In this document: piece by piece, positions 1-63,100 of the stretch
Layout of the letters: every line of letters begins with the position of its first letter
Position numbering within the stretch: position 1 is the first letter of the stretch
NCBI GenBank assembly: GCA_016214265.1
Contig: JACROU010000045.1
Coordinates: 1,072 to 65,071 of the forward strand
Length of the DNA: 64,000 nucleotides
From: Candidatus Omnitrophota bacterium
Lineage (GTDB): Bacteria; Omnitrophota; Omnitrophia; Omnitrophales; JACROU01
Reading direction: 5' to 3'
Translations under genes and position numbers: made by a program
Notes under the pieces: generated by a model
What the model saw: only the letters and a program-made list of their open reading frames with translations
Databases searched by the model: none
Told to the model about the DNA's origin: nothing

Positions 1-1010
1 CGAATGGCCTCGCCTTTTTTCCCGCCCGTCGCGACCAGAACAATTTCGCGCGCGCGGCGAACCTCACCGGCCAACGTCAGCGCTTTGACCGGAACCAAGT
101 TTATGTTTGTGAAATACCGGGAATTATCAAGAATGGTCGGCAGAGCAAGGTGAACCAGCTTGGCTCCCGGCTCGAAAAATTCAGCCTCGTCTTTGAGAAT
201 AAGATTTTTCATGAGATGCGCAGGGATCTGGGCCAAAATTTCTTGTGCTTTTTCACGAGTCAGATTACGGATGTAAAAGATGGTGTTCTGATGATCCAGC
301 AATCGCCGGCCCAAAATATCCAATTCGGCTCTGAGGTCTCCACGATCCGCATCGGGACGATATTTGGCAAGTTCGTCGACCAAGTCTGAAGAATTCCCCA
401 AATTACTTCTGAGCCTCAGACGCAGCTCAAGAGCCCGGGAAATCGCCTGACCAAGCTCGCCTTCGGCCACATCTAAGCCGACGGTAAACTCATTAAAATC
501 GCGGAGTGTCAGCTCGGATATTTCTCGAGCCGGCTCAACGAACGCGAAATGCCCGTCCTTGCCGATGCCGAGAAGCTGCCAGTCGATGCCGCCCTTCTCG
601 CGGATTTTCGCCAGATATTCTGAAATTTCTATTCTAGGATCCTCGGTCTTACCACGAAACAGATGTGTGCTCTCACGCTTGAATGCCCGGGCCGGATCAA
701 TTTCCCGGAGCCGCGCAAACAGATGCCCCTCCATATAATACCGGTAGCTTTGAACGTGCTCTGGACTCAATCCGAAATACTCATCCAGATTAAAAGTAAC
801 AACACGGGAAAAATCGATACTGGAATCGCGGCGGAACATCTCGACCACTTCGTCATAAACCGATTCCATCGTCCCGCCAGTCGCAAGGCCAAGCACCGCA
901 TCGGGCTTCGTCTTCACCACCTGAACCAGCCGCTCTGCCACGTCCTTCGGCAATTCATTTTTATTTTGAATGACTTGAAGTTTAATTTTTCCGGGAGGAG
1001 TGATTGAATC
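1..1010 (-). other. glucosamine-6-phosphate deaminase / 6-phosphogluconolactonase (NagB/Pgl)-like domain, truncated by the window edge
   Basis: AVLGLATGGTMESVYDEVV, VVTFNLDEYFGL, IDWQLLGIGKDGHFAFVEP (revcomp of cggctcaacgaacgcgaaatgcccgtccttgccgatgccgagaag at 531-575), ...ILDNSRYFTNINLVPVKALTLAGEVRRARNIVLVATGGKKGEAI at 1-60. Confidence 0.6.
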
Positions 1011-4000
1011 GGATTGACCTAAACTCAAACCGTTAGAGGAAGACTTCGTTCGCTGATCGTACGTATTCCTGATAAATACTTCTAATTCAGACTCGAATGA
1101 AAATCCTTCATGACTTTTTGCAGCTTGATAAATTTCTTCCTTCAAAGCTGGCGGCGCTCGATTGGGCAGCAATTCAAAAACCATTTCGCGCGTGATCCGA
1201 ATTCTTTCTTTCCGGACCGGTTCCGATTCTTCCGGGCGTGTCATCACAGCCCCGCGATTTAAAGATTCCGCGGCAGTTCCAGACACAGCGGCTTTTCCTT
1301 TGTATATATGTATGACAAGGGCATCCAACTGTTCACGAACTAATCCCGCTGGCACACTTGGATCAAGACCGATCCCAAACTCCCCGTCTATTTGCGTCAT
1401 GAAAACATTTTCGTTATTCGTTCTATCATGAATCGCCTGATGGGAACCGACAAAATTTTCAGTAACGTGTTCTATTTTTACCTCATAGCCATGCTTTCCA
1501 AGTTTATCCGTAATTAGTTTCTTCCATTCCTCAACAAATCCGCCCAACCGCCGCTCCTTTTCACTCACATTCAATTTTTCCCATTCAGAATAAGCCGAAC
1601 CGGAATAAACACGTGTGGGATAAGGCATCACATCTTCGACAAAAGTCATTACTTCCGTTCCCGGTGAAGCCGGAACCATGAGGCGGCTGAATTCCCGGAA
1701 CACATCATCCATTTCCGCAACCGTCATATAACCTAGAGCATCAAAACCAATAATACGTTTAAACGTATGTTCTGGTTTCGGAATTTTTCTCCAATCACCA
1801 GCGATCGTTTCAATTCGCGGATAACGTGATTGAATATCTTTCAAAGGTCCGGTCATATAATCCGTGACTGACATTTTCTGAACCAAGCTTTCCGGCAGCG
1901 GAGAAACCTCCCCTGTCTTATCCTCTAAATAAACAAGGTCCCGTCCCTGCCCCACGCCGATATCGAGCACACGTTCTCCTTCCGACAAATTTTGATCGAA
2001 AGGATTCCAAAATAATCGCGTTAACAACTGAGCGCGGGCCCGCTCCACTCTTTTCGTCGCTGCTTCTAACTCAAAATAACGGGAACGGGCATAACCTTTA
2101 ACAACAACACGCTTGATCAAATTCAATTCGCCGGCATAAAGATATCGGGCCAAAGCTCCGTCATCCAAAACAAACGGCTGAGATAAGAAATATAAATTGT
2201 TCTGATTGTCTACAAGATGGGTGCCTGTTACCATCGCGGTTTTACGATCCCCCTCCGTAAGTACGGGCTGGATGTTTCGAACGGGTTTAGTTTTCAGATC
2301 AGTAACCAAAGTGAAGACAATCTTACGCCCGCCCATTAATACAACCTGCAGGGAAACAGTGGCTAAATTTTCCCCGATACGCAACTGACTCCATTTTTCC
2401 GGATTGCGAAGCTCCAGAAAAACTTGTATCTCTTGAATATCATTGGGAGTAACCGGAAAATGCGCCGCTAACGTCAACGCTTTTAAAAACACCGACCCCT
2501 CTTCAGCAAGAATAAAATCTGATACGGCATCCTGAAACGCAGCGTATTGCTTCCGGGGTTTTTTCTCACCGCTGGCATTTTCGAATATCTTTCTTACTTG
2601 TTTTTCCAATTCAACAGGAATCCGGGTGATTGCAGATGGTTCGGTAATCACATTTTCATCTTGGCACCACAATGCGGGCATAAAAGTCTTGTCGGATTTC
2701 ACGAAATGCGTCTTGGATTGCAACCTCCACACATCAGTTAAATCCCCTTCAAAATCCTTACCCAAACTCGCGCCGCCTGCCGGGATGCCCGCTTGCGGGT
2801 CGGCTGGCGAGTTCTTGGTGGAGCGCGACAGTTCAGAAATTTCTTTATTGGAAATTGGATTTGATCTTGCTCCCGACGAACCCAAAGATTTTCCGGAGGA
2901 ATTAAAATCGGGCATGGCTTCGGGAATAGAAGCTGTCGGCGAGGCAAATGGAATATCATTTTTGGCGACCGCGGGAAAAACGGATCCGTATTCGCGTTTC
3001 AAAATCTGGCGAAACGCGTCGTATTTCCCGTCCGCTTTCAGCGCTTTAGCAATTTGGGCATGAATCCCCCCGAGCGCCGCGAGCACAGTCGTCATTTTTC
3101 CGTCCCACGTCAAAAGCGGCGCGATGGCGTTGCCGTCCACACTCGCCGACTCGACAGTGCCAAAACGGCTTTGCATTTTGGGACCCTTGAGCATCACATC
3201 AAGCCAGGCCAAGGCAATTCCTGAGGGTCCGGCCAACATCACCGGAAACACCGCGTACGGCGCCACCACTTTTTTATTTTTGACGGGTTGAAGCGCGAGC
3301 TCCGGAATTCCGGACTCTGCCAGATACGCGGGATTCTGATTGCCAGTCACCACATCGTGCGCGGACGCAAAAAGTCCCGGAATTTTATTCAGAGCCGAAT
3401 TCCAGGTTCTGGCCCTTTCTCCATTTTCAAAAATCTGACGGACTGTGGGGTCATCGGTATACGGAAGAATTAAATATTTCCACATTTCGTGCGATGAAAA
3501 CCAAAATCCTTTGAGTGTCGTCAGTCGGCCTTGAGGCGTTTTGAAATCCGAAGGCTTCAGATTGGGACGCTGATTGGCCCAAACCTTGTCCGCTTCCTTC
3601 GCGTCTTTCCATCGGCCAAAAAGAGTAATGAAGAAGGTAAAGAGCTCACCCTCATAAGGGTCTGCCAGAAAATTCGTATTGCTCAAATAATTTTCCTGGG
3701 AAGGTGCGGCATTCACATTTTTGATTTTGACCTCACCGCGAATTTTTCCGCCGCCCTCGTAGAACATCGTGACGGCATTCTGAGCCATCATATCGAACCG
3801 GGTTTTGTAACGTGCCGCTAGATCTTTGTGACCTTTCGCATCCAGCGCGTGATAAGCGGCATAAAGCGACCAGGCCAGCTGGCCGTTATCGAGCGCGGGC
3901 ACGCGATCCTGCCAGTCCCGCGTAGGCTGCATTCCACCATCGCTGACTAAAAACCAAGGCAGAAAACCGCCGAAACCGGGGTAGGTGCGACTGAATTTTT

Positions 4001-7000
4001 CGTAACTCGTAATTTTCTTCGTGAGAATGTCAACGGCCCGGGCTTCGGCCTTCGCGAGATTATCCGGGGACATAAACAATTTCACCCGGTCGTCTTCCCC
4101 CAGCACCGCGAGTGCCGCCAGCGCCACTTGAAGCGATTCTTTAGATGCCGCGCTCCAATTTCTTGGGCCACCACGCAACTCACCAGTCTCAAAATCAATC
4201 GAATGGCCGTCATAAGTCAGTCCGGAACCGGCGTTGTACGCAATTCCCGGCTGATGAAACTGTCCCTCCCAATACAACAATTTCCGAAGGTAAGCATCCG
4301 CCAATTCTTTTTTGCCGATCAAATCTTCCGCTTTAAACTCGGGGGCAAATCGATAATTTCCTTTAGGTTCCTGCACCGGCATTTTCCCGGCAAACGCAAA
4401 AGCGGCCGCCACGCCAATAAGAGCCAGAAACTCTCTTCGCGAAAAGCTTTCTTCAGAATTTCCGAGACTTGAAGCTTGAGAAACGGGGAAAAAATGAGTC
4501 ACGATTTTGCTAACCAGAGGATGAGAAATATTCAATGATTTTCCCATCAGCCGCACCATTTGATCCAATAATGCCTCAAAACTTTCCTTGGCATCCCAAG
4601 AAAGGTTGCCAAATAATCGAATCATGGCTTTTTCAAAATTTTTCTGATTAAGAACCGCCTCTTGTTGATGAACAGCTTCATTGACCGGCTTATTCGGTTC
4701 CGACGCGCAAATTTGTGTTGTAAAACTGGGACTATGAACTAATGCTCCAAAAACTTCGGGAATGCGATTAATCGTGGCATTACTAACAACAGCCGGCGAT
4801 ATTTCAATTAATGCCTGGCCGACCTTAATAAAGTGTTTGATGAGCTCTTGTTCATCCTCTCCCTCATTGGCCCCCAAACTTTGCGCGGCTGTGACCACCG
4901 TCCCCGCATCGGAGCCATTTTGAAAAACTTTTTCGATATGTTCCGCGTCGGTGATAATTCCACGCCGCGCGCCGCCATCCTTAACGAAAGCCAGCGTGGC
5001 TTCCACTTTGGGCCCCATGCTGCCGGGAGGAAACTCCCCTTCTTTATAATATTTTTCGAGTTCGCTCACGGAGGGACGAACCAACTCTTTTTCGGATAAC
5101 TTTTTGAACTGCACTTTGACACGCGGAACGCCGGTCACAATCAGAAGATTTTTCAGATTCAATTCTTTCGCCAGAAGCGCGGAACTGCGGTCTTTGTCGA
5201 TCACGCCCTCCAGCGCTTCAATCACATCGACTTCTCGGTAGCGGATCGGCACTCCGCCGCCACCCACGGCCACCACAATTTTTCCGGCCGTGAGGGCTTC
5301 GCGAATATCCTGGAGATCTTTCGGAAAAATTGAAAGCGGTTTGGGCGAAGCCACCACCCGGCGCCAGCCTTTTCCCGGAACATACGTAAACTGCCATCCT
5401 TTTTCTGCCATCAAAGCATTCTTCTGATCCTCTGAATTGTATGGACCAATGGGTTTGTCAGGATGATGAAACGCTTCATCGTTTGGATTTACAATCACCC
5501 GGGTCGGATTCAGATAAATTTCCGGCAAATTCGGAAGCTCATCTTTTTTGATTTCTTCGTAGGCGCGTAAAATATATTTTCTGAAAATTTCGGTCTGAGT
5601 TTCAGCCACCAATTCATTCAGTCGCGGCATTTGCTGAATCTCTCCGGCTTTCAATTGTTTTTCTTTTTCAAGCCAGAGGTCGCCGACTTGCGGACCATTA
5701 CCGTGTGTAATCAAAAGCGGAGTTCCGGGCCGGTAAAGCCGCAGCACGCGCCGGAGCATTTCTTTGACGTTGCGGTACTGCGCCTCATCTGTGCGAATAT
5801 CTTTTAGCGGTCCAGACTCAGCAATGAAGGCATTTCCGCCGAGCGCCACTGCCGTTCCTGAAAGCCCGACTGCACCCAAACTGGAGCCCTGAACCCGCGC
5901 AAACGGAAACTCGATTTTAAAAATGGGCGCCTGTCCTCCGGAAGTCAGCAACAACATATCTCCGCCGTAACTTTCGATGAGTCGTTTGGATAAATTCAGC
6001 CCCACCCCGGCTTCCGGACGCGTCTTGTCATCGGACTTGCCTTTTTTGAATAACTGCGGAATTGTTTCGGAATTAATGGGAGCACCGTTGTTGCCGACAA
6101 ATAACACCACCTTGTCGGTGTTTGGGTCATGACCGGCCTCGATAGTTACTTCAGTCGCATGATGTTTTTTCGCATTCCGGATTAAATTACCCAGAACAAA
6201 AATCATTCCCAATTTGGAAACACGAACTGGAAGCGGAGCATCAGGAATAGATACCTTGATGTCAAAAGAGCTCTCGGTTTTTCCTTCGGCTTCCGCATTA
6301 ATTCTTTCTTTGTTTAAATAAAGATGCCGGGTGATTGAAACGATTTTTTTGACATCTACAAATTTTTCGTTCACTTCCCTAGCTGCTCTGGAACGCCGAA
6401 TCACATCCATCAACTCTTCAAGACTTTCGCCCAACAAAACAATCACCGCAATTTTTTCGAGAACAAGCATTTCGATAGTGGTCAGCAGCAGGTTTTTAGG
6501 CAAATCCTGCTGCGCCTCCCTCGCAAAACGAACCATCAAACTCAAATTCAGGAGAATCCTCCAGATTTTTTTGAAAAAATCGTCCACTTTTGTATTCGGA
6601 TTTGGCTCGATCTCCTCTTTTCTCAGATCATTGTTGAATCGGTAAACCAGGTTGGAACCAGCTTGATGAATCTTTCTCAATTGCACTTCTTTCCCAACAC
6701 TAAATATTCCTTCGAGAGGCAAGAACTTCGAAATAGAACCCAAATGGGTATGAATGGGATTCAGCCATCCGGCAAGCTCATGGAAAGCCATGCCGACGAT
6801 TAGCAGCTGATCGGCCTTGGAAAGCTCTGTTCGGATAATACGGAAAGAACTCTTGCCTTCAGGGTCCTTCAACAACTCTAAAGCAACGCTTCTGTCATTG
6901 TTGCGAGGAAAATCCCGGTTCATGTCAAGAACGACATATCCAAAATCCGGACGTTCTTGTGCGTCCAAAATCAAATTGGCGCCGAAAATGCTGAAACGTT

Positions 7001-9434
7001 TTTCTTTCAATCCCCAAAATCCGAATTTTTTTGCCACATCGTCCCTCGGGGGAGTGTGGCCAGAAAATAAAGCGGCCAGTTTCATCCGGGAAAGATAGGT
7101 CGCCAAAAAATTGGCATCGTACTTTCGGAGAAAAAGGAGAATGTACAGCGCATGATTTTCTTTGTAAAAGTAACCGTCTTTCAGCAAGTTAATTATCTGA
7201 TTCCAGCTTTTTAATCTAAAGGAGGGCCTGGCATGGACCAGCATGACATGCTCATCACCCATCCGAGCGCGGATTACGATAGGCCAGCTTTTAAAAAAAT
7301 CCGACATCGCAATTAAAATTGCGGGGCCATGTTCTTCAAAATAACCATAATGCTGCTTAATATAATTTTCAAAATCCGATGTCTGAGATTGTTTTATCTT
7401 GGAATCAGGCGGGGCTCTTAAAATTTCGACCTGACTTCCAGCAATATGCGACAACTCATGATTGCCAAGTACCGCATGCACATTCCGGGGAAAGCCGATT
7501 TTCAGTTTCATAAAAAGCGCCAGCGTCGCAAGGGTTTGTGTCTGGGCGTCCTCTTGTTTCATCAAATCCCCTGAAGGATGAATCAGGTCGCCTAAAAATA
7601 CCAGGTGAAGACCGCCATCCTGAAGTCCCGTGAGAATGCCCGGCTCGCGGAGCAGCGAGGTTAAATGATAGAAATGTCCCTGCATATCCCCCACCACCGC
7701 CAATTTTTTTCCGGTTTCAATATTCAAGAGCGCGCCAGGTTTCATTTCCCAATCCAGCGGACGCTCACTTTCCGAATAGGTCATCGCTTCCCTGGCGTCT
7801 TCAAACAACTGTTTCAGGCCGCCAAGATTAAGTTCATCTAAAAACTTTTTAGGATCTGTAGGAATTTCAAATTTCGTTTTTGCTTTTTTTATCTCCCCCA
7901 GACTTGCCGCGGCGGCGGATACAATAGCCATGCGCGTGGCAACGACAGTTTCTCCGAGGCTGGCCGCTAGCGCCGGACGACCCTGAGCCAGCTGGGCCAG
8001 CACCAATCCGGAAGTTTTGATGCCACGCGTCATCGATTGGCGGTAAATCTTCGAGCTGTCACCGTCAACGTTGGGACGAATCGTGACATGCGGAATTTGG
8101 CGATTGTTGAAATATTTGTTCAGACCCTCAGTATGAAATCCACCGGTTATCAAAATGGCGCGGGAATTCTTCGATTGCCGAAGCTTTTCTTCAATTTTTT
8201 TCATAAAAACGTCTTCGCGTGCCTCTGCGGCTGCATAAAATGAATAGGCTGGAGAGACTATTGGCCGGCCGCCCTTTAGCTCTTCCCACTCTTTTCGGGT
8301 CAACTCAAGTGACACGAGTCCGCGAAGTAAGCGAAAATTTCGGACTTCTTGAACAAAACTTTCAGACACCATCGCGGCAAGAAGCAACTCCATCAGCCGT
8401 TTGATTTCTTCAAAGAGCGGGGCACTTTCGATTTCGTACTGAAAAATTCGGTTGCGCGCATAACGCGTAAAATTGGGATAATTCTCGAACTTGAACCCGC
8501 GGGGCGCGGCGGATTGATACAGTCTTTCGGTAACATGACGGTAATTACACACCCCGTCAACTTCGTCGCCACCCCTCTCAAGATGAGACTTCATCCAGTT
8601 ACCAAATCTTTGTTTGATCTCAGCCTCTTCTTTGCTGGCTTTTTCAAAATCAATCAGCCCTTCTTCGGCCTTCAGCTGAAACAGACGGACTAAATTGGGA
8701 AATTCGATTTGTTCTTTGGCATCCGCCAAATCACGATAGAGATACATTTTTGTGAAACGGCTCAAATCTGCCGTCACGGATGACCAATTCGCGTTCTTCC
8801 GGTCAAAGTCCAAATATTCCCGCAACAGAATCAACGCGTCTTTTTTCAACTCCCGAGAAGCTTTCCGGTCCAGCTGTTGACGGATTGTTTCCAAATTTCT
8901 TTTCGATTCGGTTTCATGACGCATCACGTCCCTGAAAAGATCAAAGTTTTTCCGGTAAAGCGCGGCATCTTCGATACCAATGGCATGAAGTCCCTTCGTA
9001 TTCAAGGCAAGCTCCGAGCCCGTGATTTCGCCCAAATCAACCAATTTGTCGATGAGCTTATGGTTCAGCTGCGGATTTTGAAGAAATCGGAGATACCGGG
9101 AATCCAGCTCCTCGACCGCGCCTTCAACAAAAACAGTTGTGATTCCATAATTTTTGAAAAGATATTCAATGATTTTTTCGGTATTTCTTTGTCCAGAAGG
9201 ATTTCCGTGAGCATCTTGAATATGAATCAAAAAGGGGCGGTCAGCAGAATGAGCCAGCGAGGCGGATTCGATGGCACCTAACTCAACGGGAATTTGAATT
9301 TGTGGAAGCGGCTCAACACGGACTTCTGAAGGAAGATTGCCGTAAGCGATGGTGTTGGACAAAAAACACACAATGACCGCAAACGCAACAATACGCTGGC
9401 TTAATTTTGCGAGCCTTCCTGGCTGTGATTGCAT
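1..9434 (-). CDS. giant multidomain protein; 5' end (ATG) at 9434, 3' end beyond the left window edge, at least 3144 codons in window. Domain order: signal-anchor, metallophosphoesterase, GHKL/HATPase_c, carbamate kinase-like, Tat-like hydrophobic segment, (alpha/alpha)6-like, SAM methyltransferase-like, NagB/Pgl-like
   Basis: No complete ORF of 60 aa or more is listed on the minus strand across 1-9434 except two short off-frame ones, and plus-strand ORFs are all short. Minus-strand translation starts at ATG 9434 (AGGGTGGA 11 nt upstream, in-frame TAA at 9462-9464). It reads MQSQPGRLAKLSQRIVAFAVIVCFL... and stays open; motifs checked against the plus strand at 7456-7484, 6075-6098, 5680-5711, 4382-4447, 3841-3920, 1937-1978 and 531-575 all fall in the same frame (first codon base congruent to 2 mod 3). 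Confidence 0.7.
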   Translation of the reverse strand, partial: MQSQPGRLAKLSQRIVAFAVIVCFLSNTIAYGNLPSEVRVEPLPQIQIPVELGAIESASLAHSADRPFLIHIQDAHGNPSGQRNTEKIIEYLFKNYGITTVFVEGAVEELDSRYLRFLQNPQLNHKLIDKLVDLGEITGSELALNTKGLHAIGIEDAALYRKNFDLFRDVMRHETESKRNLETIRQQLDRKASRELKKDALILLREYLDFDRKNANWSSVTADLSRFTKMYLYRDLADAKEQIEFPNLVRLFQLKAEEGLIDFEKASKEEAEIKQRFGNWMKSHLERGGDEVDGVCNYRHVTERLYQSAAPRGFKFENYPNFTRYARNRIFQYEIESAPLFEEIKRLMELLLAAMVSESFVQEVRNFRLLRGLVSLELTRKEWEELKGGRPIVSPAYSFYAAAEAREDVFMKKIEEKLRQSKNSRAILITGGFHTEGLNKYFNNRQIPHVTIRPNVDGDSSKIYRQSMTRGIKTSGLVLAQLAQGRPALAASLGETVVATRMAIVSAAAASLGEIKKAKTKFEIPTDPKKFLDELNLGGLKQLFEDAREAMTYSESERPLDWEMKPGALLNIETGKKLAVVGDMQGHFYHLTSLLREPGILTGLQDGGLHLVFLGDLIHPSGDLMKQEDAQTQTLATLALFMKLKIGFPRNVHAVLGNHELSHIAGSQVEILRAPPDSKIKQSQTSDFENYIKQHYGYFEEHGPAILIAMSDFFKSWPIVIRARMGDEHVMLVHARPSFRLKSWNQIINLLKDGYFYKENHALYILLFLRKYDANFLATYLSRMKLAALFSGHTPPRDDVAKKFGFWGLKEKRFSIFGANLILDAQERPDFGYVVLDMNRDFPRNNDRSVALELLKDPEGKSSFRIIRTELSKADQLLIVGMAFHELAGWLNPIHTHLGSISKFLPLEGIFSVGKEVQLRKIHQAGSNLVYRFNNDLRKEEIEPNPNTKVDDFFKKIWRILLNLSLMVRFAREAQQDLPKNLLLTTIEMLVLEKIAVIVLLGESLEELMDVIRRSRAAREVNEKFVDVKKIVSITRHLYLNKERINAEAEGKTESSFDIKVSIPDAPLPVRVSKLGMIFVLGNLIRNAKKHHATEVTIEAGHDPNTDKVVLFVGNNGAPINSETIPQLFKKGKSDDKTRPEAGVGLNLSKRLIESYGGDMLLLTSGGQAPIFKIEFPFARVQGSSLGAVGLSGTAVALGGNAFIAESGPLKDIRTDEAQYRNVKEMLRRVLRLYRPGTPLLITHGNGPQVGDLWLEKEKQLKAGEIQQMPRLNELVAETQTEIFRKYILRAYEEIKKDELPNLPEIYLNPTRVIVNPNDEAFHHPDKPIGPYNSEDQKNALMAEKGWQFTYVPGKGWRRVVASPKPLSIFPKDLQDIREALTAGKIVVAVGGGGVPIRYREVDVIEALEGVIDKDRSSALLAKELNLKNLLIVTGVPRVKVQFKKLSEKELVRPSVSELEKYYKEGEFPPGSMGPKVEATLAFVKDGGARRGIITDAEHIEKVFQNGSDAGTVVTAAQSLGANEGEDEQELIKHFIKVGQALIEISPAVVSNATINRIPEVFGALVHSPSFTTQICASEPNKPVNEAVHQQEAVLNQKNFEKAMIRLFGNLSWDAKESFEALLDQMVRLMGKSLNISHPLVSKIVTHFFPVSQASSLGNSEESFSRREFLALIGVAAAFAFAGKMPVQEPKGNYRFAPEFKAEDLIGKKELADAYLRKLLYWEGQFHQPGIAYNAGSGLTYDGHSIDFETGELRGGPRNWSAASKESLQVALAALAVLGEDDRVKLFMSPDNLAKAEARAVDILTKKITSYEKFSRTYPGFGGFLPWFLVSDGGMQPTRDWQDRVPALDNGQLAWSLYAAYHALDAKGHKDLAARYKTRFDMMAQNAVTMFYEGGGKIRGEVKIKNVNAAPSQENYLSNTNFLADPYEGELFTFFITLFGRWKDAKEADKVWANQRPNLKPSDFKTPQGRLTTLKGFWFSSHEMWKYLILPYTDDPTVRQIFENGERARTWNSALNKIPGLFASAHDVVTGNQNPAYLAESGIPELALQPVKNKKVVAPYAVFPVMLAGPSGIALAWLDVMLKGPKMQSRFGTVESASVDGNAIAPLLTWDGKMTTVLAALGGIHAQIAKALKADGKYDAFRQILKREYGSVFPAVAKNDIPFASPTASIPEAMPDFNSSGKSLGSSGARSNPISNKEISELSRSTKNSPADPQAGIPAGGASLGKDFEGDLTDVWRLQSKTHFVKSDKTFMPALWCQDENVITEPSAITRIPVELEKQVRKIFENASGEKKPRKQYAAFQDAVSDFILAEEGSVFLKALTLAAHFPVTPNDIQEIQVFLELRNPEKWSQLRIGENLATVSLQVVLMGGRKIVFTLVTDLKTKPVRNIQPVLTEGDRKTAMVTGTHLVDNQNNLYFLSQPFVLDDGALARYLYAGELNLIKRVVVKGYARSRYFELEAATKRVERARAQLLTRLFWNPFDQNLSEGERVLDIGVGQGRDLVYLEDKTGEVSPLPESLVQKMSVTDYMTGPLKDIQSRYPRIETIAGDWRKIPKPEHTFKRIIGFDALGYMTVAEMDDVFREFSRLMVPASPGTEVMTFVEDVMPYPTRVYSGSAYSEWEKLNVSEKERRLGGFVEEWKKLITDKLGKHGYEVKIEHVTENFVGSHQAIHDRTNNENVFMTQIDGEFGIGLDPSVPAGLVREQLDALVIHIYKGKAAVSGTAAESLNRGAVMTRPEESEPVRKERIRITREMVFELLPNRAPPALKEEIYQAAKSHEGFSFESELEVFIRNTYDQRTKSSSNGLSLGQSDSITPPGKIKLQVIQNKNELPKDVAERLVQVVKTKPDAVLGLATGGTMESVYDEVVEMFRRDSSIDFSRVVTFNLDEYFGLSPEHVQSYRYYMEGHLFARLREIDPARAFKRESTHLFRGKTEDPRIEISEYLAKIREKGGIDWQLLGIGKDGHFAFVEPAREISELTLRDFNEFTVGLDVAEGELGQAISRALELRLRLRSNLGNSSDLVDELAKYRPDADRGDLRAELDILGRRLLDHQNTIFYIRNLTREKAQEILAQIPAHLMKNLILKDEAEFFEPGAKLVHLALPTILDNSRYFTNINLVPVKALTLAGEVRRAREIVLVATGGKKGEAI
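1500..2300 (-). other. class I SAM-dependent methyltransferase-like domain within the giant ORF
   Basis: Motif I ERVLDIGVGQGRDLVYL verified at 1937-1978 (plus strand gtcccgtccctgccccacgccgatatcgagcac), followed by RIIGFDALGYM and EFSRLMVPASPGTEVMTFVED. Confidence 0.5.
2700..4300 (-). other. (alpha/alpha)6 six-hairpin glycosidase-like region within the giant ORF (family unassigned; DUF3131/GH144-like is a guess)
   Basis: Segment ...DGGMQPTRDWQDRVPALDNGQLAWSLYAAYHALDAKGHKDLAARY... verified at 3841-3920; aromatic/Gly-rich helical repeats. Assignment is by resemblance only. Confidence 0.3.
4382..4447 (-). other. internal twin-arginine-like motif plus hydrophobic segment, SRREFLALIGVAAAFAFAGKM
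   Basis: Codon-by-codon revcomp of 4382-4444 gives S-R-R-E-F-L-A-L-I-G-V-A-A-A-F-A-F-A-G-K-M in the ORF frame. Confidence 0.5.
4865..5900 (-). other. carbamate kinase-like (amino-acid kinase family) domain within the giant ORF
   Basis: VALGGNAF near the start; signature LLITHGNGPQVG, read as revcomp of gccgacttgcggaccattaccgtgtgtaat at 5680-5711; KIVVAVGGGGVPI; GSMGPKVEA; ends at ...GSDAGTVVTA (about 4870-4925). Confidence 0.65.
5950..6260 (-). other. GHKL / histidine-kinase-like ATPase (HATPase_c) domain within the giant ORF
   Basis: N-box-like LGNLIRNAKKH, G1-like VLFVGNNGAPI (plus strand aatgggagcaccgttgttgccgac at 6075-6098), G2-like GVGLNLSKRLIESYGG. Confidence 0.5.
7040..7710 (-). other. 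calcineurin-like metallophosphoesterase domain within the giant ORF
   Basis: Motifs VVGDMQGHF (about 7672-7698), FLGDLIHPSGD and VLGNHE (7467-7484, plus strand ctcatgattgccaagtac), then SGHTP (about 7045-7062). Confidence 0.6.
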
Positions 9435-9470
9435 TCGAACGAGATCCACCCTTAGAGGAATTTAGGGGGA

Positions 9471-12635: not shown

Positions 12636-14801
12636 TTATAGAATTTGCTGTAATTCCCGAAAAAAACTGACGCCGGCTCCCACGGAAGAGGGTTTGCCAC
12701 TCAAAAGATCTTCTGCTTTCCGCTTGGCTTCGGCCATTTTGGGATAACGCACCTTTCGGTAACCGCGCACTTCTTCGGGGATTTCGAAAATTTTCACGTA
12801 AGACTCATAACGCACTGTCCCGCCCGGAGAAAAAGCATCCACCAAACCGATATACCAGTCGCGAAATTCTTTTTCTTTAGCATGCCAAGCAGGCAGCAAC
12901 ACGCGCAGAATTTTAAAATGCTTCATAATGTTCAGCATCCAATCTTTCGTCCTCATGTTCCATTCTAAATCAAACCCCAGAATGGTGAATTGCGGACGAT
13001 TGATGTGCTCATAGACTGCCTTGTCGCCGCGTTTTGGATCAACATCGTAGCGCTCAAGATCACGTCGGTATTTTTCAACGCTCGTCAACAGATGCGCCAC
13101 ATACACCTCATCTTTGATGAGCATCACTTTGGCAAGATAACGAATCACGGCTTTTGTGACTCGATAATCATTTTCGGAATTGTCTTTCACATAAACCGTT
13201 TTGATTTTATCAAAATATTTCTGGGCATATTTCAGATTTTCGAATTGAATCAAATCATAAGCGCGCAGGGCAATTTGCAGATTGATAGTATCATCCAGTT
13301 TTAGAAACTCCACCAGCGCTTCCACCCGTTTTTTATATTCCCGGGCCAGTCTTTTACTTTTTTTCGAAAGAATCTTGATTTTATCGTCTAGCATTTCCGA
13401 GTATGTGGCCAATTTGGCTTCTATTGCATAAACCTGAGGATTAAGTGCGATTTTTCGCCCGAGATTAAACGCTTTCATGTTGTCGTCAAACGCGCTTTTC
13501 GGGACGGTCATTTGAATGGACCACTCAAGATTCTTAAAATCGACTGGCAATTCCCCTCGTTGATACGCAGCGCCCAGAATCATCATATTGGCATAAATCG
13601 TATTGCCAAGCATGCGCTGGGCTACCTCCGAAACATTCGCGCCGAAATATGTTTCACGCTTTGTTGCACGACGAATCATCTCCTCAAGTTCAGCGGGCAG
13701 AAAATTATCTTCTCCAAGCAGCATGGTGATAGTTGGCGTTTTCTCGGTATTGATCACAGCCGTCGTAAAATCCGGACTACCGATGCGTTGAGTGAGCGTC
13801 GGATCCAGACTGCGCACGCTTTCGAGAATGTCCATCCCCAAAAGCAGGTCCGCCTTGCCGTACGGGATAATCGGAGAAATAATTCCGTTGCCATTTCGCG
13901 TATACGTTACGTGTGAGAACACACCGCCGTTTCGAATGGCAAGACCCTTTTTATCCGCAAAGCTGACGCGATATCCCTGGCGCATTCCAGCCCTCACTAA
14001 AATCGCCGTAACAAGACCGATACCCATACCACCGACTCCGGAAAGATAAACGGACCAACCCTTGTCAAAAGTGCGGCGCTTGGCCTCGGGAATATCTGAA
14101 AAATTGATTGAATCGACGGGTCGTACGGGAGCTTGTTTCCGGATCACGGTAATTTCTTCAAAAGAGGGGCACGCCTTTACGCGGTAACAAGCACCATCCG
14201 ATTTGCAAAGTGAAAGATCGGTGGCAATTTTGGGGCCATAATGAGTTTCTTCAATCGTCAAACCGGGACATCCGGTGGTTTTCGTACACTCCAAGCAGAA
14301 CTCACAGACTTCCGGAGTAATGTTGACAAATTTTTTCTCGGGCATATAGCCGATTTTTTTGATTACGTCCCGCTCAGCGCGAACGACTTTGCGGTCGTAG
14401 GTGATACCGCATTCTTTGTCAGCAATCACCACCTTGACACCTTTTTTCAGCACCGTCTCTTCCATTAAATGTCGGTAACTGTCCCGGTATTCAGGATTCA
14501 CACGATAAACCGGCACTTCCCCATTTTTCGCCATACCGCTTACGATGGATTCAATATTTTGTTTAAACGTGGAATTCCCCAGAATGTCAACATTCTGTCC
14601 CGGATTCGGCTGATGGCCGGTCATGGCTGTTGTATCGTTATCCAAAATAACAATCAAAATATCCTGTCCGTATTTCAGCGCGTCGGAAATAGCGATCATG
14701 CCGGAGTGAAAAAATGTGGAGTCGCCCATAAAAACAACCTGCTTGTTCTGGATAAAACGATCGATACCAGCACCTGTTCCCGGTCCCACCGGTGTCTCCA
14801 T
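12636..14801 (-). CDS. indolepyruvate:ferredoxin oxidoreductase family, C-terminal part (TPP-binding, 2x[4Fe-4S], IorB-like); frameshifted from upstream part
   Basis: GDSTFFHSG TPP motif; CEFCLECTKTTGCPG and CKSDGACYRVKACPS ferredoxin motifs; long IorB-like C-terminus. Overlaps ORF 14638-16158 in another frame. Confidence 0.7.
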   Translation of the reverse strand: METPVGPGTGAGIDRFIQNKQVVFMGDSTFFHSGMIAISDALKYGQDILIVILDNDTTAMTGHQPNPGQNVDILGNSTFKQNIESIVSGMAKNGEVPVYRVNPEYRDSYRHLMEETVLKKGVKVVIADKECGITYDRKVVRAERDVIKKIGYMPEKKFVNITPEVCEFCLECTKTTGCPGLTIEETHYGPKIATDLSLCKSDGACYRVKACPSFEEITVIRKQAPVRPVDSINFSDIPEAKRRTFDKGWSVYLSGVGGMGIGLVTAILVRAGMRQGYRVSFADKKGLAIRNGGVFSHVTYTRNGNGIISPIIPYGKADLLLGMDILESVRSLDPTLTQRIGSPDFTTAVINTEKTPTITMLLGEDNFLPAELEEMIRRATKRETYFGANVSEVAQRMLGNTIYANMMILGAAYQRGELPVDFKNLEWSIQMTVPKSAFDDNMKAFNLGRKIALNPQVYAIEAKLATYSEMLDDKIKILSKKSKRLAREYKKRVEALVEFLKLDDTINLQIALRAYDLIQFENLKYAQKYFDKIKTVYVKDNSENDYRVTKAVIRYLAKVMLIKDEVYVAHLLTSVEKYRRDLERYDVDPKRGDKAVYEHINRPQFTILGFDLEWNMRTKDWMLNIMKHFKILRVLLPAWHAKEKEFRDWYIGLVDAFSPGGTVRYESYVKIFEIPEEVRGYRKVRYPKMAEAKRKAEDLLSGKPSSVGAGVSFFRELQQIL

Positions 14802-16158
14802 GAAACAGTAAGTCCACCGGCCCTGAGTTGTGATTCTTTTTCATGTACTCGGAATTCATAAAATCTTTTTTGATTTCGAGAAATACGCTGGAGGAATCCC
14901 GGTGCGGACACCCTGGACAGAATGTCGGTGTGCGGCGCGGAATGCGAACAGCAAATTGAGCGGTTTTTTGTATCAACCCGAGCTCGCCGTCCCAAACTTG
15001 ATCCAGTTTCGGCAAATCACTGTCTTTGATCCAACGGAAAAGCGGCACAAGGCGTTCGATTAATATCGAAGTGTTAATGCCGCGGGTTTCGGGAATACCA
15101 GCAAGCGAGTCCGGAAATTTCTTACCCCAAACTTTCGGCATAGAGGTGATAGTCTCGTACTGAAAGGCGTCTTTCAATATTTGCGTGATTTGAGATTCGA
15201 TAAAATCACGTTTTTCCTCAACGATAAATAGCTCCTCAACGATTTTCGAAAACTCCAAAATAGTTTCGGGATCCAGCGGATACGTCAGTCCAAGTTTCAG
15301 GATTGGAATTTGTCCCGTCATCCCTAGCTCGCGAAGCGCATGTTCCAAATAACTGTGAGCGAGTCCCGACGTGACGAACCCGAACCGGCGTTTTTTGCTT
15401 AATGCCGGACGGTATAAAATCTTATCCAGTTGTTGTGAACGAACGAATTTATGCAGATCCGCGAAACGTGCTTTGATGTTCTCTTCACGCTGAGAAGTGC
15501 GCGGCGGAAGGATCACCGTCTCTTCGACAGGGATTTTTTCTGTGTTAATGCTGATACGGTCTTTCGTATTAATGGTAGAGAATACGTTGGGATTACATTC
15601 CACGGTTCCCCCGCCGTCAGCAAGATTAGTCGTGATAATAAACGTGATATAAAGATTGGCGGCGCGCGAGGCTTCGAACGAAAGCCGTATCCAGTCTTTG
15701 ATTTCTTGAAAAGTTGCCGGCTCAATGATGGGCATAAACAAATGTTTGGAAAGAAAACGCGAATCGGAAGGAACTTGCGTACTGTCAGACCACGGATCGT
15801 CCCCAACAACCACAACCGCACCGCCCGTGTGGCCGGTCTTTGCCATATTGCCGAGCGCCAGTCCATCCGAGGCCACATGAAGCCCAACGCTCTTCATTAC
15901 GCAAAGTCCGCGAAGATCAGACATCTGCGAACCGTTCAACCGCGCGACGCCCAGAGCTTCGTTGTTGGCGATTTGAAGCAGAATTCCTTTTTCTTTCAGG
16001 AGATCATCCGCTTGTTTGGCGATATTAAAAAAATCGGCAACCGGAGAACCGGGATAGCCCGTAAGTAAGCTAACACCCGCTTCCAAAGCGCCTTTAAAAA
16101 GCAGCTCAGTGCCGCTAAAAACCTGAACTCCTGATTTCTGAGTAAAACGTTGATCCAT
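14638..16158 (-). CDS. indolepyruvate:ferredoxin oxidoreductase family, N-terminal part (pyrimidine-binding domain)
   Basis: GYPGSPVADFF, VVVGDDPWSDSTQ, TFCPGCPHR. The frame runs out shortly after ...HNSGPVDLLFHGDTG, while the other frame reads ...ETPVGPGTGAGIDRF. Confidence 0.7.
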   Translation of the reverse strand: MDQRFTQKSGVQVFSGTELLFKGALEAGVSLLTGYPGSPVADFFNIAKQADDLLKEKGILLQIANNEALGVARLNGSQMSDLRGLCVMKSVGLHVASDGLALGNMAKTGHTGGAVVVVGDDPWSDSTQVPSDSRFLSKHLFMPIIEPATFQEIKDWIRLSFEASRAANLYITFIITTNLADGGGTVECNPNVFSTINTKDRISINTEKIPVEETVILPPRTSQREENIKARFADLHKFVRSQQLDKILYRPALSKKRRFGFVTSGLAHSYLEHALRELGMTGQIPILKLGLTYPLDPETILEFSKIVEELFIVEEKRDFIESQITQILKDAFQYETITSMPKVWGKKFPDSLAGIPETRGINTSILIERLVPLFRWIKDSDLPKLDQVWDGELGLIQKTAQFAVRIPRRTPTFCPGCPHRDSSSVFLEIKKDFMNSEYMKKNHNSGPVDLLFHGDTGGTGNRCWYRSFYPEQAGCFYGRLHIFSLRHDRYFRRAEIRTGYFDCYFG

Positions 16159-23821: not shown

Positions 23822-23898
23822 TGGTGCCCTCGGGCCGAGTCGAACGGCCGACATCCTCCTTAGGAGTGAGGTGCTCTATCCATCTGAGCTACGAGGGC
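23822..23898 (-). tRNA. tRNA-Arg (anticodon CCU), CCA encoded
   Basis: Revcomp GCCCUCGUAGCUCAGAUGGAUAGAGCACCUCACUCCUAAGGAGGAUGUCGGCCGUUCGACUCGGCCCGAGGGCACCA: 7-bp acceptor stem, D-arm GCUC/GAGC, anticodon loop CUCCUAA, T-arm GGCCG-UUCGACU-CGGCC. Confidence 0.85.
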
Positions 23899-23916: not shown

Positions 23917-24543
23917 TTAATTAGCTTTTTGAGTTTCGGGAAATTTTTCCATAATGGTATTAATTGATTTGGCTACTTTCTTTTCTTCGATCTGAATCAC
24001 TGGGGAATCCAGCTCAACATTTTTAATACCGGTAGCACGCCATACGGAAGTTTTTGTCTTACGATCATAAAAATCAAGAATAAACTTGCCTTCACTGTAG
24101 TACGAAGTATAAGCACGGTCATCCCAGACTGAAGCGGGAATACTTCTGACGTTGCCAAACTGATTTATTCTTACCCGGGCGCCAAAATATTCCTGTTTGT
24201 GTCCGAACCCCGCCTTCGACACGCTTTCCTTTTGCTCGATACTTCCCGTGTAAACCACTACTAAATCAGCTTCCTCAAATGGAACCTCACTATATCCCTT
24301 GGCAATTAAATCTTTATTAACCGCCTCTGTGATCACTCGATACATGCCCTCATGCGGCTGCTTTTTCAAATGCTTCATCCAGAGATCCTGAGGCAGCCAG
24401 GCAAACGTTTTGTACTGATTAAAATCTTTCTCCGTATCTTTATTGATAGACACTTCAAGATCGGCAAAGCTGATATCGGAAAAACCAGAAAAAATACACG
24501 CAACCAAAAAACCAATAATGATTTTTTTATACATAATTTTCAT
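23917..24543 (-). CDS. hypothetical secreted protein
   Basis: 208 aa with signal peptide MKIMYKKIIIGFLVACIFSGFS...A; no recognisable catalytic motif. Confidence 0.55.
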   Translation of the reverse strand: MKIMYKKIIIGFLVACIFSGFSDISFADLEVSINKDTEKDFNQYKTFAWLPQDLWMKHLKKQPHEGMYRVITEAVNKDLIAKGYSEVPFEEADLVVVYTGSIEQKESVSKAGFGHKQEYFGARVRINQFGNVRSIPASVWDDRAYTSYYSEGKFILDFYDRKTKTSVWRATGIKNVELDSPVIQIEEKKVAKSINTIMEKFPETQKAN

Positions 24544-25450
24544 TGCCTTTTTTTAAAAACAACATTGGACTAAATCGTGACAATAACCACGCCGCTAAAA
24601 AGGTGATGACAACACCAACGAATCCTGCCAACGCTCCGGAAAGAAGCTCATTCTGTATTAATGGAATTGCGTATCCAGTAAAAGGACTCAAAAAGGCGGG
24701 CGCGGAGGCGGGAATGAATTGATATTTCTCAGCAACCCACATTAAACCGTCAGGAAAGCGGGAGGCAAAAGGACTTAACATCCCCCCGATCACGATAGCA
24801 CTCAGAAATGGACTGCTAACTATCCCTATTGAAGATCTTTTCGCCGCGTTTACGGAAAAAAGATGATAGGCCAGAATAGTCATTAATCCTTCCCCAATTC
24901 CAATAACAGCATGGGTGCTTATCATCGCGCCCGCAATTTTAGAAAAAGGAATTGTTCCGGAAAATGCCAACTCCAAACTACAAGCAAACGCCGCCAGCAT
25001 TACAGAAAACCAAGCCGCTAAACCTATCATCATGGAATCAAACAACGATTGAGAAAATTTGGGGGGCAGCGCTTTATAGAGAAAGCCACCGAAGGCGGCG
25101 CCGATCAAAGCCATATTCAAAATGTTAGCGCCTAAAACTGAAAATCCACCATCGGAGAACACCAAACATTGAACCAGGAGCACCAGAGCCGCTGCCAAAA
25201 CACCGAAAGGAATGCCAAGCAAAGCAGTCGCAAGCACGCCTCCAAGAAAATGTCCGGAAGTACCGTTCTGAACAGGAAAATTCATCATTTGAGCGGCAAA
25301 AATAAAAGCGGAAACCGACGCAAAGCGAAGCACACTGGGTTTGTCTTTAAATTTCATTGCCGCCAGCGTTAGCCCTCCAACACCTAGCACACTCACAGCA
25401 GCCGTAACGGGACAAATTGCCCCTCCCATCATAGAATTAGGAATATGCAT
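24527..25450 (-). CDS. CbiM/NikM-family ECF transporter substrate-capture component with C-terminal PDGLE domain
   Basis: N-terminus MHIPNSMMGG (CbiM-type MHIPDG-like), about 7 TM helices; C-terminal FPDGLMWVAEKYQF is a PDGLE-like motif. No adjacent CbiQ/CbiO. Confidence 0.7.
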   Translation of the reverse strand: MHIPNSMMGGAICPVTAAVSVLGVGGLTLAAMKFKDKPSVLRFASVSAFIFAAQMMNFPVQNGTSGHFLGGVLATALLGIPFGVLAAALVLLVQCLVFSDGGFSVLGANILNMALIGAAFGGFLYKALPPKFSQSLFDSMMIGLAAWFSVMLAAFACSLELAFSGTIPFSKIAGAMISTHAVIGIGEGLMTILAYHLFSVNAAKRSSIGIVSSPFLSAIVIGGMLSPFASRFPDGLMWVAEKYQFIPASAPAFLSPFTGYAIPLIQNELLSGALAGFVGVVITFLAAWLLSRFSPMLFLKKGNENYV

Positions 25451-25515
25451 AATTGTTTCTCCTATTTTGGATACGTCTATAATCAGCTTGAACTAAATGA
25501 CGAATTAAAGGAACG

Positions 25516-25950
25516 TCATTCAATAGGATTACCTGCAGCATTATTAAAACGAACAACCCCTGTTTCATCAACAAAAAAAGTATTCACTCCTGTAACGTTC
25601 GCGGTGACTGGAGCTGCCGTGCATGTAAATTGATTCGCATTCACTAAGGTATAAGTAAATGTATACCCCTGTTTCGTTCCGCCAGCCAAAACCGCATCGA
25701 TATAAGGCGGAGTTGCAGCTGAAAGCGCGACCAAATTCGCCGGATAAGTCGGCGGATTCTGCGTCATTCGAAAACTTTCACAACCCGTACTAATCGTTCG
25801 AAGAGAAGATTTCGCAGTTGATTCGTTCGCCCCCACTCTGGCCCGCAGCAAAACAGGAAACGAAATTGCCACCAGCAGCCCCAGAACACCGGCAACAATC
25901 ATGATTTCAACGAGTGTAAATCCTTTTTTCGAAACTAATTGAGATATCAT
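25516..25950 (-). CDS. type IV pilin / pseudopilin-like protein (prepilin N-terminal methylation motif)
   Basis: KKGFTLVEIMIVAGVLGLLVAISFP class-III signal, about 120-aa globular part. Confidence 0.75.
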   Translation of the reverse strand: MISQLVSKKGFTLVEIMIVAGVLGLLVAISFPVLLRARVGANESTAKSSLRTISTGCESFRMTQNPPTYPANLVALSAATPPYIDAVLAGGTKQGYTFTYTLVNANQFTCTAAPVTANVTGVNTFFVDETGVVRFNNAAGNPIE

Positions 25951-26037
25951 TATAGTCTCCCCACCGGGGGGTCTCCCACCGATATAAATATTATCATTAA
26001 GAGGGCCAAACGGTTGGAAATAGATGGTAGCGGAGGT

Positions 26038-63019: not shown

Positions 63020-63025
63020 AAAAAG

Positions 63026-63100
63026 CGTCCCCAAGGGGATTTGAACCCCTGTCAGCAGATCGAAAATCTGCTGTCCTAGGCCAGACTAGACGATGGGGAC
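63026..63100 (-). tRNA. tRNA-Glu (anticodon UUC), CCA not encoded
   Basis: Revcomp GUCCCCAUCGUCUAGUCUGGCCUAGGACAGCAGAUUUUCGAUCUGCUGACAGGGGUUCAAAUCCCCUUGGGGACG; close to E. coli tRNA-Glu; anticodon loop UUUUCGA. Confidence 0.85.

Follow-up and report, generated by a model that had tools for sequence, protein, structure and literature searches.

Multi-enzyme giant proteins have been described in the Omnitrophota before. West-Roberts et al. (2023, bioRxiv 10.1101/2023.11.21.568195) reported proteins of at least 30,000 amino acids (aa), the 'Archaeovorins', with glycolytic, PPDK and HATPase_c domains, and Nielsen & Lui (2026, bioRxiv 10.64898/2026.06.07.730766) catalogued proteins of at least 10,000 aa, among them a class 1 of 'multi-enzyme metabolic clusters'; Seymour et al. 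(2023) called the giant open reading frames (ORFs) poorly understood. Whether such a product works as one chain or as cut pieces is the central question about the Omnitrophota giants, and it has stalled for want of cleavage points, which were stated as not known (West-Roberts et al. 2023). Here we analyse a stretch of 64,000 nucleotides (the window) from a contig of a Candidatus Omnitrophota bacterium (JACROU010000045.1), in which one open-ended ORF occupies the minus strand of the first 9.4 kb. An initial annotation made from the letters alone had recognised six enzyme domains in this ORF, guessed at a 'megaprotein' and hinted that no described protein carries such a combination. The guess was borne out by the source, as the DNA comes from the phylum in which multi-enzyme giants are described; since such architectures were already on record there, the hint fails and fusion alone is not novel. 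The best-supported reading is that the ORF encodes a modular 'head-cargo-tail' precursor, whose enzyme-sized modules are separated by short and conserved junction peptides.

The frame can be read on the minus strand from the ATG at 9434 to the left edge of the window through 3144 codons without a stop, and the ORF listing holds no complete minus-strand ORF within 1-9434, just as the initial annotation had reported. An in-frame GTG lies upstream at 9449; the public record begins at the ATG. That record, an identical NCBI protein of 3501 aa (P0001) from a Candidatus Omnitrophica metagenome-assembled genome (MAG), is labelled partial: the end of the 69,334-bp contig cuts the gene about 1.07 kb past the window, so that the protein does run past the window, as had been claimed, its stop is still not reached and its own C-terminus is missing. 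A complete positional orthologue of 2612 aa (P0004, GCA_973787085.1) is preceded by the same gene order, and its locus reads DXS-NADK-IOR-GluRS-HIT-PPase-giant gene. The neighbours in the window are housekeeping genes, namely those for pyrophosphatase, HIT, GluRS, IOR-like oxidoreductase, NAD kinase, DXS, polyprenyl synthase, ExoVII, sigma-70 and PPDK.

The alternative left by the initial annotation was an artefact of assembly or frame, which could take the form of an assembly chimera, an indel-made read-through or a decaying pseudogene of fused remnants. The contig is that of a MAG and its end truncates the gene, and the adjoining IOR-like gene is frameshifted relative to its orthologue, so that indels, real or erroneous, do occur in it. 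However, indel errors break ORFs and do not yield 9.4 kb free of stops. An artefact is effectively excluded because every module aligns in frame and full-length to its own family, because the syntenic complete orthologue has the same architecture and because head, junctions and tail are common to thousands of relatives (9,373 related clusters, see below); the NCBI record points the same way. We regard it as almost certain that the gene is genuine, lies on the chromosome of an Omnitrophota bacterium and belongs to the family described here.

The chain is punctuated by a recurrent peptide. SLG is its commonest tripeptide, with 8 copies in the window ORF and 10 in the 3501-aa protein, compared to 1.4-1.6 expected. 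The copies share the core [A/G]-x-S-L-G, with the extended consensus [A/V/S]-x-[A/G]-[A/S/R/K]-S-L-G. All 10 sites lie outside the domain envelopes, which cover ~54% of the protein (0.46^10 = 4e-4), and a junction lies within 4-12 residues of an edge of each of the carbamate kinase, glucanase and NagB profiles: the carbamate kinase profile (aa 1195-1515) lies between SLG 1185 and SLG 1519, and the stretch from SLG 1656 to SLG 2183 is taken up by the glucanase precursor. The same placement was seen in relatives, with an HD domain (3680-3817) of P0035 held between sites 3660 and 3841 and an APH domain of P0042 beginning 20 aa past a junction site. Junction positions are kept between orthologous blocks at 37-49% identity. 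Junction 3 recurs at aa 1437 of P0004 and at aa 1291 of P0003 (47-49% identity), and junction 4 at aa 1769 and aa 1691, respectively. A genome-wide compositional quirk was rejected as the source of the motif, as the other ORFs of the window hold 9 SLG compared to ~8 expected. Combined, these results show a strongly enriched, conserved consensus that brackets complete enzyme profiles and bounds self-contained products, which is one mark of a polyprotein.

A census of 168 family proteins (~450,000 aa) revealed two junction codes. In class I (40 SLG-rich proteins), SLG occurs 320 times compared to 58 expected, and RSExR once compared to 3.3. In class II (58 RSExR-rich proteins), RSExR occurs 442 times compared to 4.6 expected, and SLG 71 times compared to 85. 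A single protein of the census carries at least four copies of both motifs. Large members with neither motif use RAEVR, RPEVR, RPEAR or KSEGR, and class II can be written as [R/K]-[S/A/P]-E-x-R. The motif class tracks the similarity clusters and the phylogeny of the head, and it is uniform among diverged paralogues of one genome: class I holds for all four in OFTM55 and all three in USST84, and class II throughout about 20 further genomes, with one ambiguous locus. The interval between junctions has a median of 261 aa (interquartile range 117-444). We consider the junction motifs very probably to be functional recognition sites under selection.

The junction signal acts at the peptide level, because the nucleotide profiles hold no information beyond the motif codons. 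A nucleotide-level signal, whether a recombination site, an RNA processing site or a two-frame element, was rejected on the same data: flanking positions carry at most 0.4 bit, and no element is common to the two classes; Rfam gave no match inside the giant ORF. A test of the junctions against the boundaries of high-scoring segment pairs was uninformative, as conserved blocks span several modules. Codon use at the motifs is biased. The Ser of SLG is coded AGY at 7 of 8 sites in the window (4461-9434) and at 19 of 30 in other genomes (loci L001, L003-L005, L008, L062, L069, L072 and L081), compared to a background of 28%; at class II junctions CGY codes for the first Arg in 52 of 59 cases and TCN for the Ser in 57 of 59, with no wider nucleotide motif. 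This bias in Ser and Arg codon families fits a long uninterrupted conservation, which does not explain it fully.

The head, of ~450 aa, follows a signal-like N-terminus in the family alignments, where H71, Q73, H76, E104, R406 and the G431-G-F-H434 stretch are invariant. It gave no Pfam match at E <= 1, no NCBIfam match and no PDB sequence match with a 17-sequence profile. In the AlphaFold2 model built on a 17-sequence alignment (pLDDT 84.4, pTM 0.78), the predicted fold is an alpha/beta core whose central parallel beta-sheet is as in ChaN, Bcr135, HopBA1, RRSP and PMT, with a helical insertion of ~270 aa. Residues H76, E104, R406 and H434 are kept in 155 of the 168 members. H76 and E104 lie 28 residues apart in every one of the 155 members whose N-terminus is intact; the distance between R406 and H434 is likewise 28 in almost all of these members. 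The catalytic set of RRSP consists of E3900, H3902, E3930, R4001 and H4030, that is two His and two Glu with an essential Arg, and Bcr135 has H85 and E113 (PMC6254334). The His-to-Glu spacing is thus 28 in the head, in RRSP and in Bcr135, and the Arg-to-His spacing is 28 in the head compared to 29 in RRSP.

With a profile of the head, 9,373 clusters (50% identity level) were retrieved, 6,066 of them at E <= 1e-30. In all of the top 150 matches the head stands at the extreme N-terminus, in proteins of up to ~7,500 aa, and an N-terminal signal pattern is seen by hydropathy in nearly all family members. At least 545 head loci were confirmed in species-representative genomes, all named ones being Omnitrophota, with several loci per genome. 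In over 100 Omnitrophota proteins, 1,700-5,500 aa long, similarity to the window protein is confined to its first ~13-17%, and unrelated enzymes follow; the cargo of relatives includes PFK, transaldolase, TIM, phosphoglucomutase, hexokinase, PPDK, nucleotide kinases, protein kinases, receiver domains and TPR. Stand-alone head proteins were considered and set aside, as the short representatives look truncated by contig ends. One relative with class II junctions (P0019) has trypsin-like serine protease domains in its Pfam list (PF13365, PF00089), and a protease module of this type could process class II (Arg-ending) paralogues in trans.

After their last junction, complete relatives end in one of two types of tail module of ~260-300 aa; homology between the two types is unproven (hhalign E 0.023, probability 2%). 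The C-terminus is -[A/S]-A in 131 of 168 members (e.g. ...VSVAA, ...TAKAA, ...AQSA), and among the first 48 examined most exceptions are annotated as partial or lie on short contigs. Such an ending resembles the recognition signals of ssrA/ClpX or of tail-specific proteases. Estimating the missing C-terminus of the window protein from P0012 was abandoned, as the alignment was unconvincing. The shared ending, together with the invariant Ser of both major motifs and its preserved codon family (AGY in class I, TCN in class II), would suit an event other than proteolysis: a phosphorylation or glycosylation of the Ser, or the recognition of junctions and C-terminal -AA by a quality-control or unfolding machine in the manner of an ssrA-type degron. 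However, the RAEVR and RPEVR variants have no Ser to modify, and modification alone does not explain why the motifs stand exactly at module boundaries and are then followed by signal-like segments. We regard a non-proteolytic event as very improbable.

Turning to the cargo of the window protein, a Pfam search placed five of the domains listed by the initial annotation in a single frame, in the order it had given and without overlap. Its parts list held for the six enzyme domains; the N-terminal signal, the TIKI-like head, the SLG junctions and an internal twin-arginine (Tat) signal had escaped it. Five Pfam families, the glucanase and the head are present in one copy each (Table 1).

The initial annotation's 'six-hairpin-like region' was confirmed, and it can be identified more sharply as a predicted endo-beta-1,2-glucanase, full-length and of the 6IMU type (E 2e-119, with residues 15-502 of the 505-residue chain matched), which we take to be a GH162 enzyme with an (alpha/alpha)6 barrel. 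The internal Tat-type signal (SRREFL and AAAFAFAG) begins one residue past junction 5, precedes the complete mature glucanase and lies outside the span matched by the mature chain. In P0002, the orthologous glucanase module, 54% identical to this one, has a different export or anchor signal at the equivalent place. Judged by its profile matches, the carbamate-kinase-like module is divergent yet complete: Pfam AA_kinase matches aa 1196-1494 (E 7.6e-15) above its own cut-off, and arcC (TIGR00746) scores 244.8 bits, below its equivalog cut-off of 358.25. In the kinase core, NCBIfam models of the sensor kinases VanS, WalK and ArcB align from aa ~1000 to ~1183, and an apparent H-box, 'AFHELAGWLNPI', may be read by eye around H885. 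The Methyltransf_25 match (E 2.4e-6) reaches 28.6-31.3 bits, only just above the cut-off of 27, and sits in a 581-aa module whose N-terminal half has no annotation. The NagB-like module has an insertion of ~100 aa after the active-site region: Glucosamine_iso matches aa 2827-2964 (E 1e-9) and covers only positions 9-143 of 225 of the profile, and nagB (TIGR00502) matches in two stretches (9e-40) with 136.6 bits, below its cut-off of 236.9. The ~68-aa element before junction 8 ('...TREMVFELLPNRAPPALKEEIY...') is duplicated outside the window at aa 3401-3467 of the 3501-aa protein (45% identity, E 1e-14 by BLAST), and both copies end at an SLG junction, the second at aa 3468; it is absent from 47 other family members and was rejected as a family-wide recognition module. 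Further modules continue past the window. Positional orthologues share only the head and the block of kinase and carbamate kinase, and the remaining cargo differs.

Table 1. Features of the giant ORF and its predicted product, with residues of the protein and positions in the 64,000-nucleotide window.
Feature	Residues (aa)	Position	Strand	Remark
Giant ORF, open-ended		1..9434	minus	3144 codons in window
N-terminal Sec-type signal/anchor (predicted)	1-32	9339..9434	minus	charged n-region, hydrophobic core, A-Y-G before NLP; inspection and hydropathy scans
Head module	36-491	7962..9329	minus	predicted TIKI/EreA/ChaN/TraB-fold alpha/beta core with large helical insertion
Junction 1, AASLG	490-494	7953..7961	minus	closes head module; low-pLDDT stretch of model
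Junction 2, AASLG	509-513	7896..7904	minus	L of SLG is an invariant column in family alignment
Metallophosphoesterase (calcineurin-like)	577-795	7050..7706	minus	Pfam PF00149 Metallophos, E 6.6e-10
Histidine-kinase core	~865-1183	5886..6842	minus	HATPase_c PF02518 at aa 1079-1178, E 3e-10
Junction 3, GSSLG	1183-1187	5874..5882	minus	between kinase ATPase and carbamate kinase
Carbamate kinase, complete	1195-1515	4890..5852	minus	NCBIfam arcC 1e-72, profile 4-308/309
Junction 4, AQSLG	1517-1521	4872..4880	minus	four residues past carbamate kinase profile end
Function-unassigned module	1522-1655	4470..4871	minus	134 aa; no Pfam or NCBIfam match
Junction 5, ASSLG	1654-1658	4461..4469	minus	SLG motif
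Internal twin-arginine-type signal (predicted)	1659-1693	4356..4460	minus	NSEESF-SRREFL-ALIGVAAAFAFAG-K; inspection and hydropathy
Endo-beta-1,2-glucanase (predicted), mature, complete	1694-2178	2901..4355	minus	phmmer against PDB 6IMU/6IMW
Junction 6, GKSLG	2181-2185	2880..2888	minus	SLG motif
Junction 7, GASLG	2221-2225	2760..2768	minus	37-aa spacer after junction 6
Class I SAM-methyltransferase domain	2489-2588	1671..1970	minus	Pfam PF13649 Methyltransf_25
~68-aa pre-junction element	2736-2803	1026..1229	minus	ends at junction 8
Junction 8, GLSLG	2802-2806	1017..1025	minus	nagB profile begins 12 residues on
NagB/Pgl-type isomerase/deaminase	2818 to window edge (to ~3190 in P0001)	3..983	minus	Pfam PF01182, NCBIfam nagB

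We favour a reading, held at even odds, in which the head-cargo-tail product is cut at the junctions into individual enzymes. The ORF would be translated as a single chain and the chain then cut at [A/G]xSLG or [R/K][S/A/P]ExR. The cutter could be the TIKI-fold head, in cis or in trans, or a partner encoded elsewhere in the genome; the reader of the junction code would be a lineage-specific protease, and the released modules would be sorted by their own Sec or Tat signals, as the glucanase may be by its Tat signal. A precursor of separate enzymes is more likely than one multifunctional enzyme. The putative role of the motifs as cleavage sites has, in our estimate, about an even chance. The head is the leading candidate for the protease because it is the sole universally conserved hydrolase-like domain; that it is one is nonetheless doubtful. 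We suggest, tentatively and as something rather less than probable, that Omnitrophota run a large share of their enzyme repertoire as cellular polyproteins, from thousands of head-cargo-tail genes with lineage-specific junctions.

The distribution of hydrophobic segments bears on this reading and on its main rival. Signal- or anchor-like segments are found within 40 aa downstream of 25 of 84 junctions compared to 13% expected (p = 6e-5), and hydropathy gives only two to four hydrophobic segments in the whole 3501-aa protein. By their spacing, their differences between orthologues and their signals, the modules look like proteins that were, or may become, separate. From the known cofactor needs, a chain left uncleaved should be unable to place the modules that depend on ATP or S-adenosylmethionine (SAM) in the cytoplasm and the glucanase outside. 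The main rival is precisely such a chain, an uncleaved multi-enzyme scaffold of the 'coat' type at the surface or membrane, anchored or secreted by way of its N-terminal signal. In it the junctions would be hinge, capping or docking motifs, the docking being for instance to a shared partner, a chaperone or the translocon, and the internal hydrophobic segments would be true transmembrane (TM) helices by which the chain crosses the membrane repeatedly. Published models do treat Omnitrophota giants as membrane-associated single chains with many TM helices, and a signal peptide or TM helices are present in 94% of long Omnitrophota proteins; the segments that follow junctions could equally be topology-switching helices, the junctions may have a docking function, and the gene and its surroundings yielded no protease domain. 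However, a passive linker leaves unexplained why a sequence-specific motif of 5-7 residues should be ~100-fold enriched, change from one sequence to an unrelated one between clades and be uniform within a genome, and two to four hydrophobic segments should not suffice to keep the carbamate kinase, kinase ATPase, methyltransferase and NagB modules in the cytoplasm and the glucanase outside. Nor is the internal Tat-type signal expected to work in an uncleaved chain, as signals of this type are not expected to function internally. We consider the scaffold unlikely, if a serious contender.

The export signal and the fold of the head also raise the possibility of a delivered multi-effector, similar to MARTX toxins, in which the whole chain would be exported to a host or prey and cut at the junctions there, setting free the ATP- and SAM-dependent enzymes. 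This would be the polyprotein reading with another place and purpose of cleavage. An N-terminal export signal is found across the family (nearly all members), Omnitrophota have been predicted or observed to be predators and episymbionts, and enzymes of cytoplasmic type that follow a signal peptide would be best explained by a site of action in the cytoplasm of another cell. Moreover, the head has its fold in common with RRSP, a MARTX effector, and with HopBA1, a type III effector, and a cut at S-L↓G would resemble the sites, cut after Leu, by which MARTX effectors are separated. In contrast to known toxins, however, the cargo is mostly housekeeping metabolism, with carbamate kinase and NagB here and glycolytic enzymes in relatives. 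The protein gave no cysteine protease domain and no RTX or glycine-rich repeats, no secretion-system partner was identified nearby, an internal Tat signal would have no role in a prey cell, and there are several to many paralogues per genome. We give delivery to another cell only a small chance.

Several observations weigh against processing of the chain by cleavage, and in particular against the head as its agent. Firstly, the position of the first catalytic Glu of RRSP is taken by Asp in the window protein and by Asn or Thr in over half of the family, and the superfamily includes esterases, a haem-binding protein and inactive members (PMC6254334). Relatedness confounds the link between head position 74 and motif class, and the uniformity of motifs within genomes and clades could likewise be phylogenetic inertia. 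Secondly, Pfam scans revealed no canonical protease domain in the window protein or in the products of adjoining genes, and no protease or transporter gene stands beside the giant gene in the window or at the orthologous locus. Thirdly, closely spaced double junctions are not enriched (12.6% compared to 11.7%), and the type A tail is a generic Rossmann/HAD-like sandwich with neither the HAD motif nor an informative signature. From the N-terminal signal, the head and perhaps the entire chain would be expected to be exported, which is hard to square with processing in the cytoplasm and with a Tat signal inside the chain. We see the case for cleavage, built from sequence, as evenly balanced.

Some other features of the window were recorded. 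The IOR-like oxidoreductase gene is split into two overlapping ORFs in different frames (12636-16158, minus strand, with the break near 14,788); the syntenic orthologue is a single gene of 1196 aa, and tblastn aligns its residues 1-457 in frame -3 and 479-1179 in frame -1. The split reflects a genuine pseudogene or else an indel from assembly. Another ORF of great length, 2508 aa (26071-33597, minus strand), has C-terminal GH94 supersandwich and catalytic domains and is presumably a cyclic beta-1,2-glucan synthase or a cellobionic-phosphorylase-like enzyme. It was rejected as a member of the giant family, having no head and no motifs (1 SLG compared to 1.4 expected); together with the glucanase module, it suggests a metabolism of beta-1,2-glucan in this organism. 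The AT skew peaks at 24001-26000 (0.157) and at 30001-32000 (0.216) over a background near zero, the second peak lying inside the GH94-type ORF. The only Rfam or ARAGORN matches in the window are tRNA-Arg(CCT) at 23822-23898 and tRNA-Glu(TTC) at 63025-63100, both on the minus strand. Between ~41200 and 43400 there are only small ORFs (104-116 aa) at a GC content of 0.43; the window is densely coded elsewhere, with nearly all genes on the minus strand.

The grammar described here consists of a head, modules of enzyme size, two junction peptides that exclude one another and a tail. It is common to more than 9,000 clusters and yields explicit candidate cleavage sites, which can be checked in an existing public metaproteome (PXD025008). 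If cleavage is true, these genes would encode cellular polyproteins, a new mode of bacterial gene organisation and the first case of a polyprotein strategy on a large scale in cells. A further biological role would fall to the TIKI superfamily, and annotation would change, each 'hypothetical giant' becoming a list of ordinary enzymes. Should the code in addition extend to the giants of 10,000-147,000 aa, the largest bacterial proteins known would have the cleavage map that they lack. Even with cleavage refuted, the motifs mark module boundaries and make the structure prediction of giants tractable.

The closest described systems share parts of this organisation. Like the catalogued Omnitrophota giants, the window protein comes from the same phylum and consists of unrelated enzymes tiling one chain (HATPase_c, methyltransferases, sugar-phosphate enzymes and kinases), with an N-terminal signal and scattered hydrophobic segments as judged by hydropathy and inspection. 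It is smaller: the catalogues start at 10,000 or 30,000 aa, whereas the window protein has at least 3501 aa, its complete orthologue 2612 aa and the largest relatives ~7,500 aa. The published giants were described by Pfam content and TM topology, and their post-translational cleavage was speculated upon. Term searches of the literature gave no mention, for this phylum, of a shared head, inter-domain motifs, cleavage sites, a conserved C-terminus, TIKI/TraB or polyproteins. The multi-enzyme fusion itself is thus already known, and the head-junction-tail grammar appears to be undescribed.

At the level of sequence, the head shares with the TIKI/TraB-PrgY/EreA-D/ChaN superfamily the ordered series His...Glu(+28)...Arg...His(+28), as in RRSP and Bcr135. 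Two members of this superfamily, Tiki and RRSP, are site-specific endopeptidases. Tiki presumably cuts Wnt3a at ...S-L↓A...; of this account the 'eight N-terminal residues' alone are confirmed. Tiki/TraB peptidases have been predicted to be leader-peptide processing enzymes (PMC8939145). In contrast to the superfamily, the head has no detectable profile membership in Pfam, NCBIfam or PDB sequence searches, carries the insertion of ~270 aa, has Asp, Asn or Thr in place of the first Glu and always stands at the N-terminus of a giant modular protein; its hydrolytic activity is putative.

MARTX toxins are giant secreted proteins whose unrelated enzyme modules are freed at short inter-module sites and whose repertoire varies by strain. 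The present family has variable modules and conserved junction motifs, at which cleavage is putative, and the MARTX effector RRSP has the fold of the head. MARTX toxins rely on a cysteine protease activated by inositol hexakisphosphate, on glycine-rich repeats and on type I secretion, none of which was found here: Pfam gave no match to Peptidase_C80 or repeat families in the whole protein or in its segments, and no ABC, MFP or TolC genes are present among the neighbours examined. MARTX cargo consists of cytotoxic effectors, with one toxin per strain, whereas the present family carries metabolic enzymes in thousands of paralogues.

The polyproteins of picornaviruses, flaviviruses and nidoviruses provide the last comparison. 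The window gene differs from them in being a cellular chromosomal gene among housekeeping genes and in its metabolic cargo, and the candidate protease has a fold that viral polyprotein proteases are not known to use. It resembles them in the organisation of its putatively cleaved product: one ORF, a boundary consensus that co-varies with lineage, an embedded hydrolase-like module and internal signals, which in the viruses send single products across membranes.

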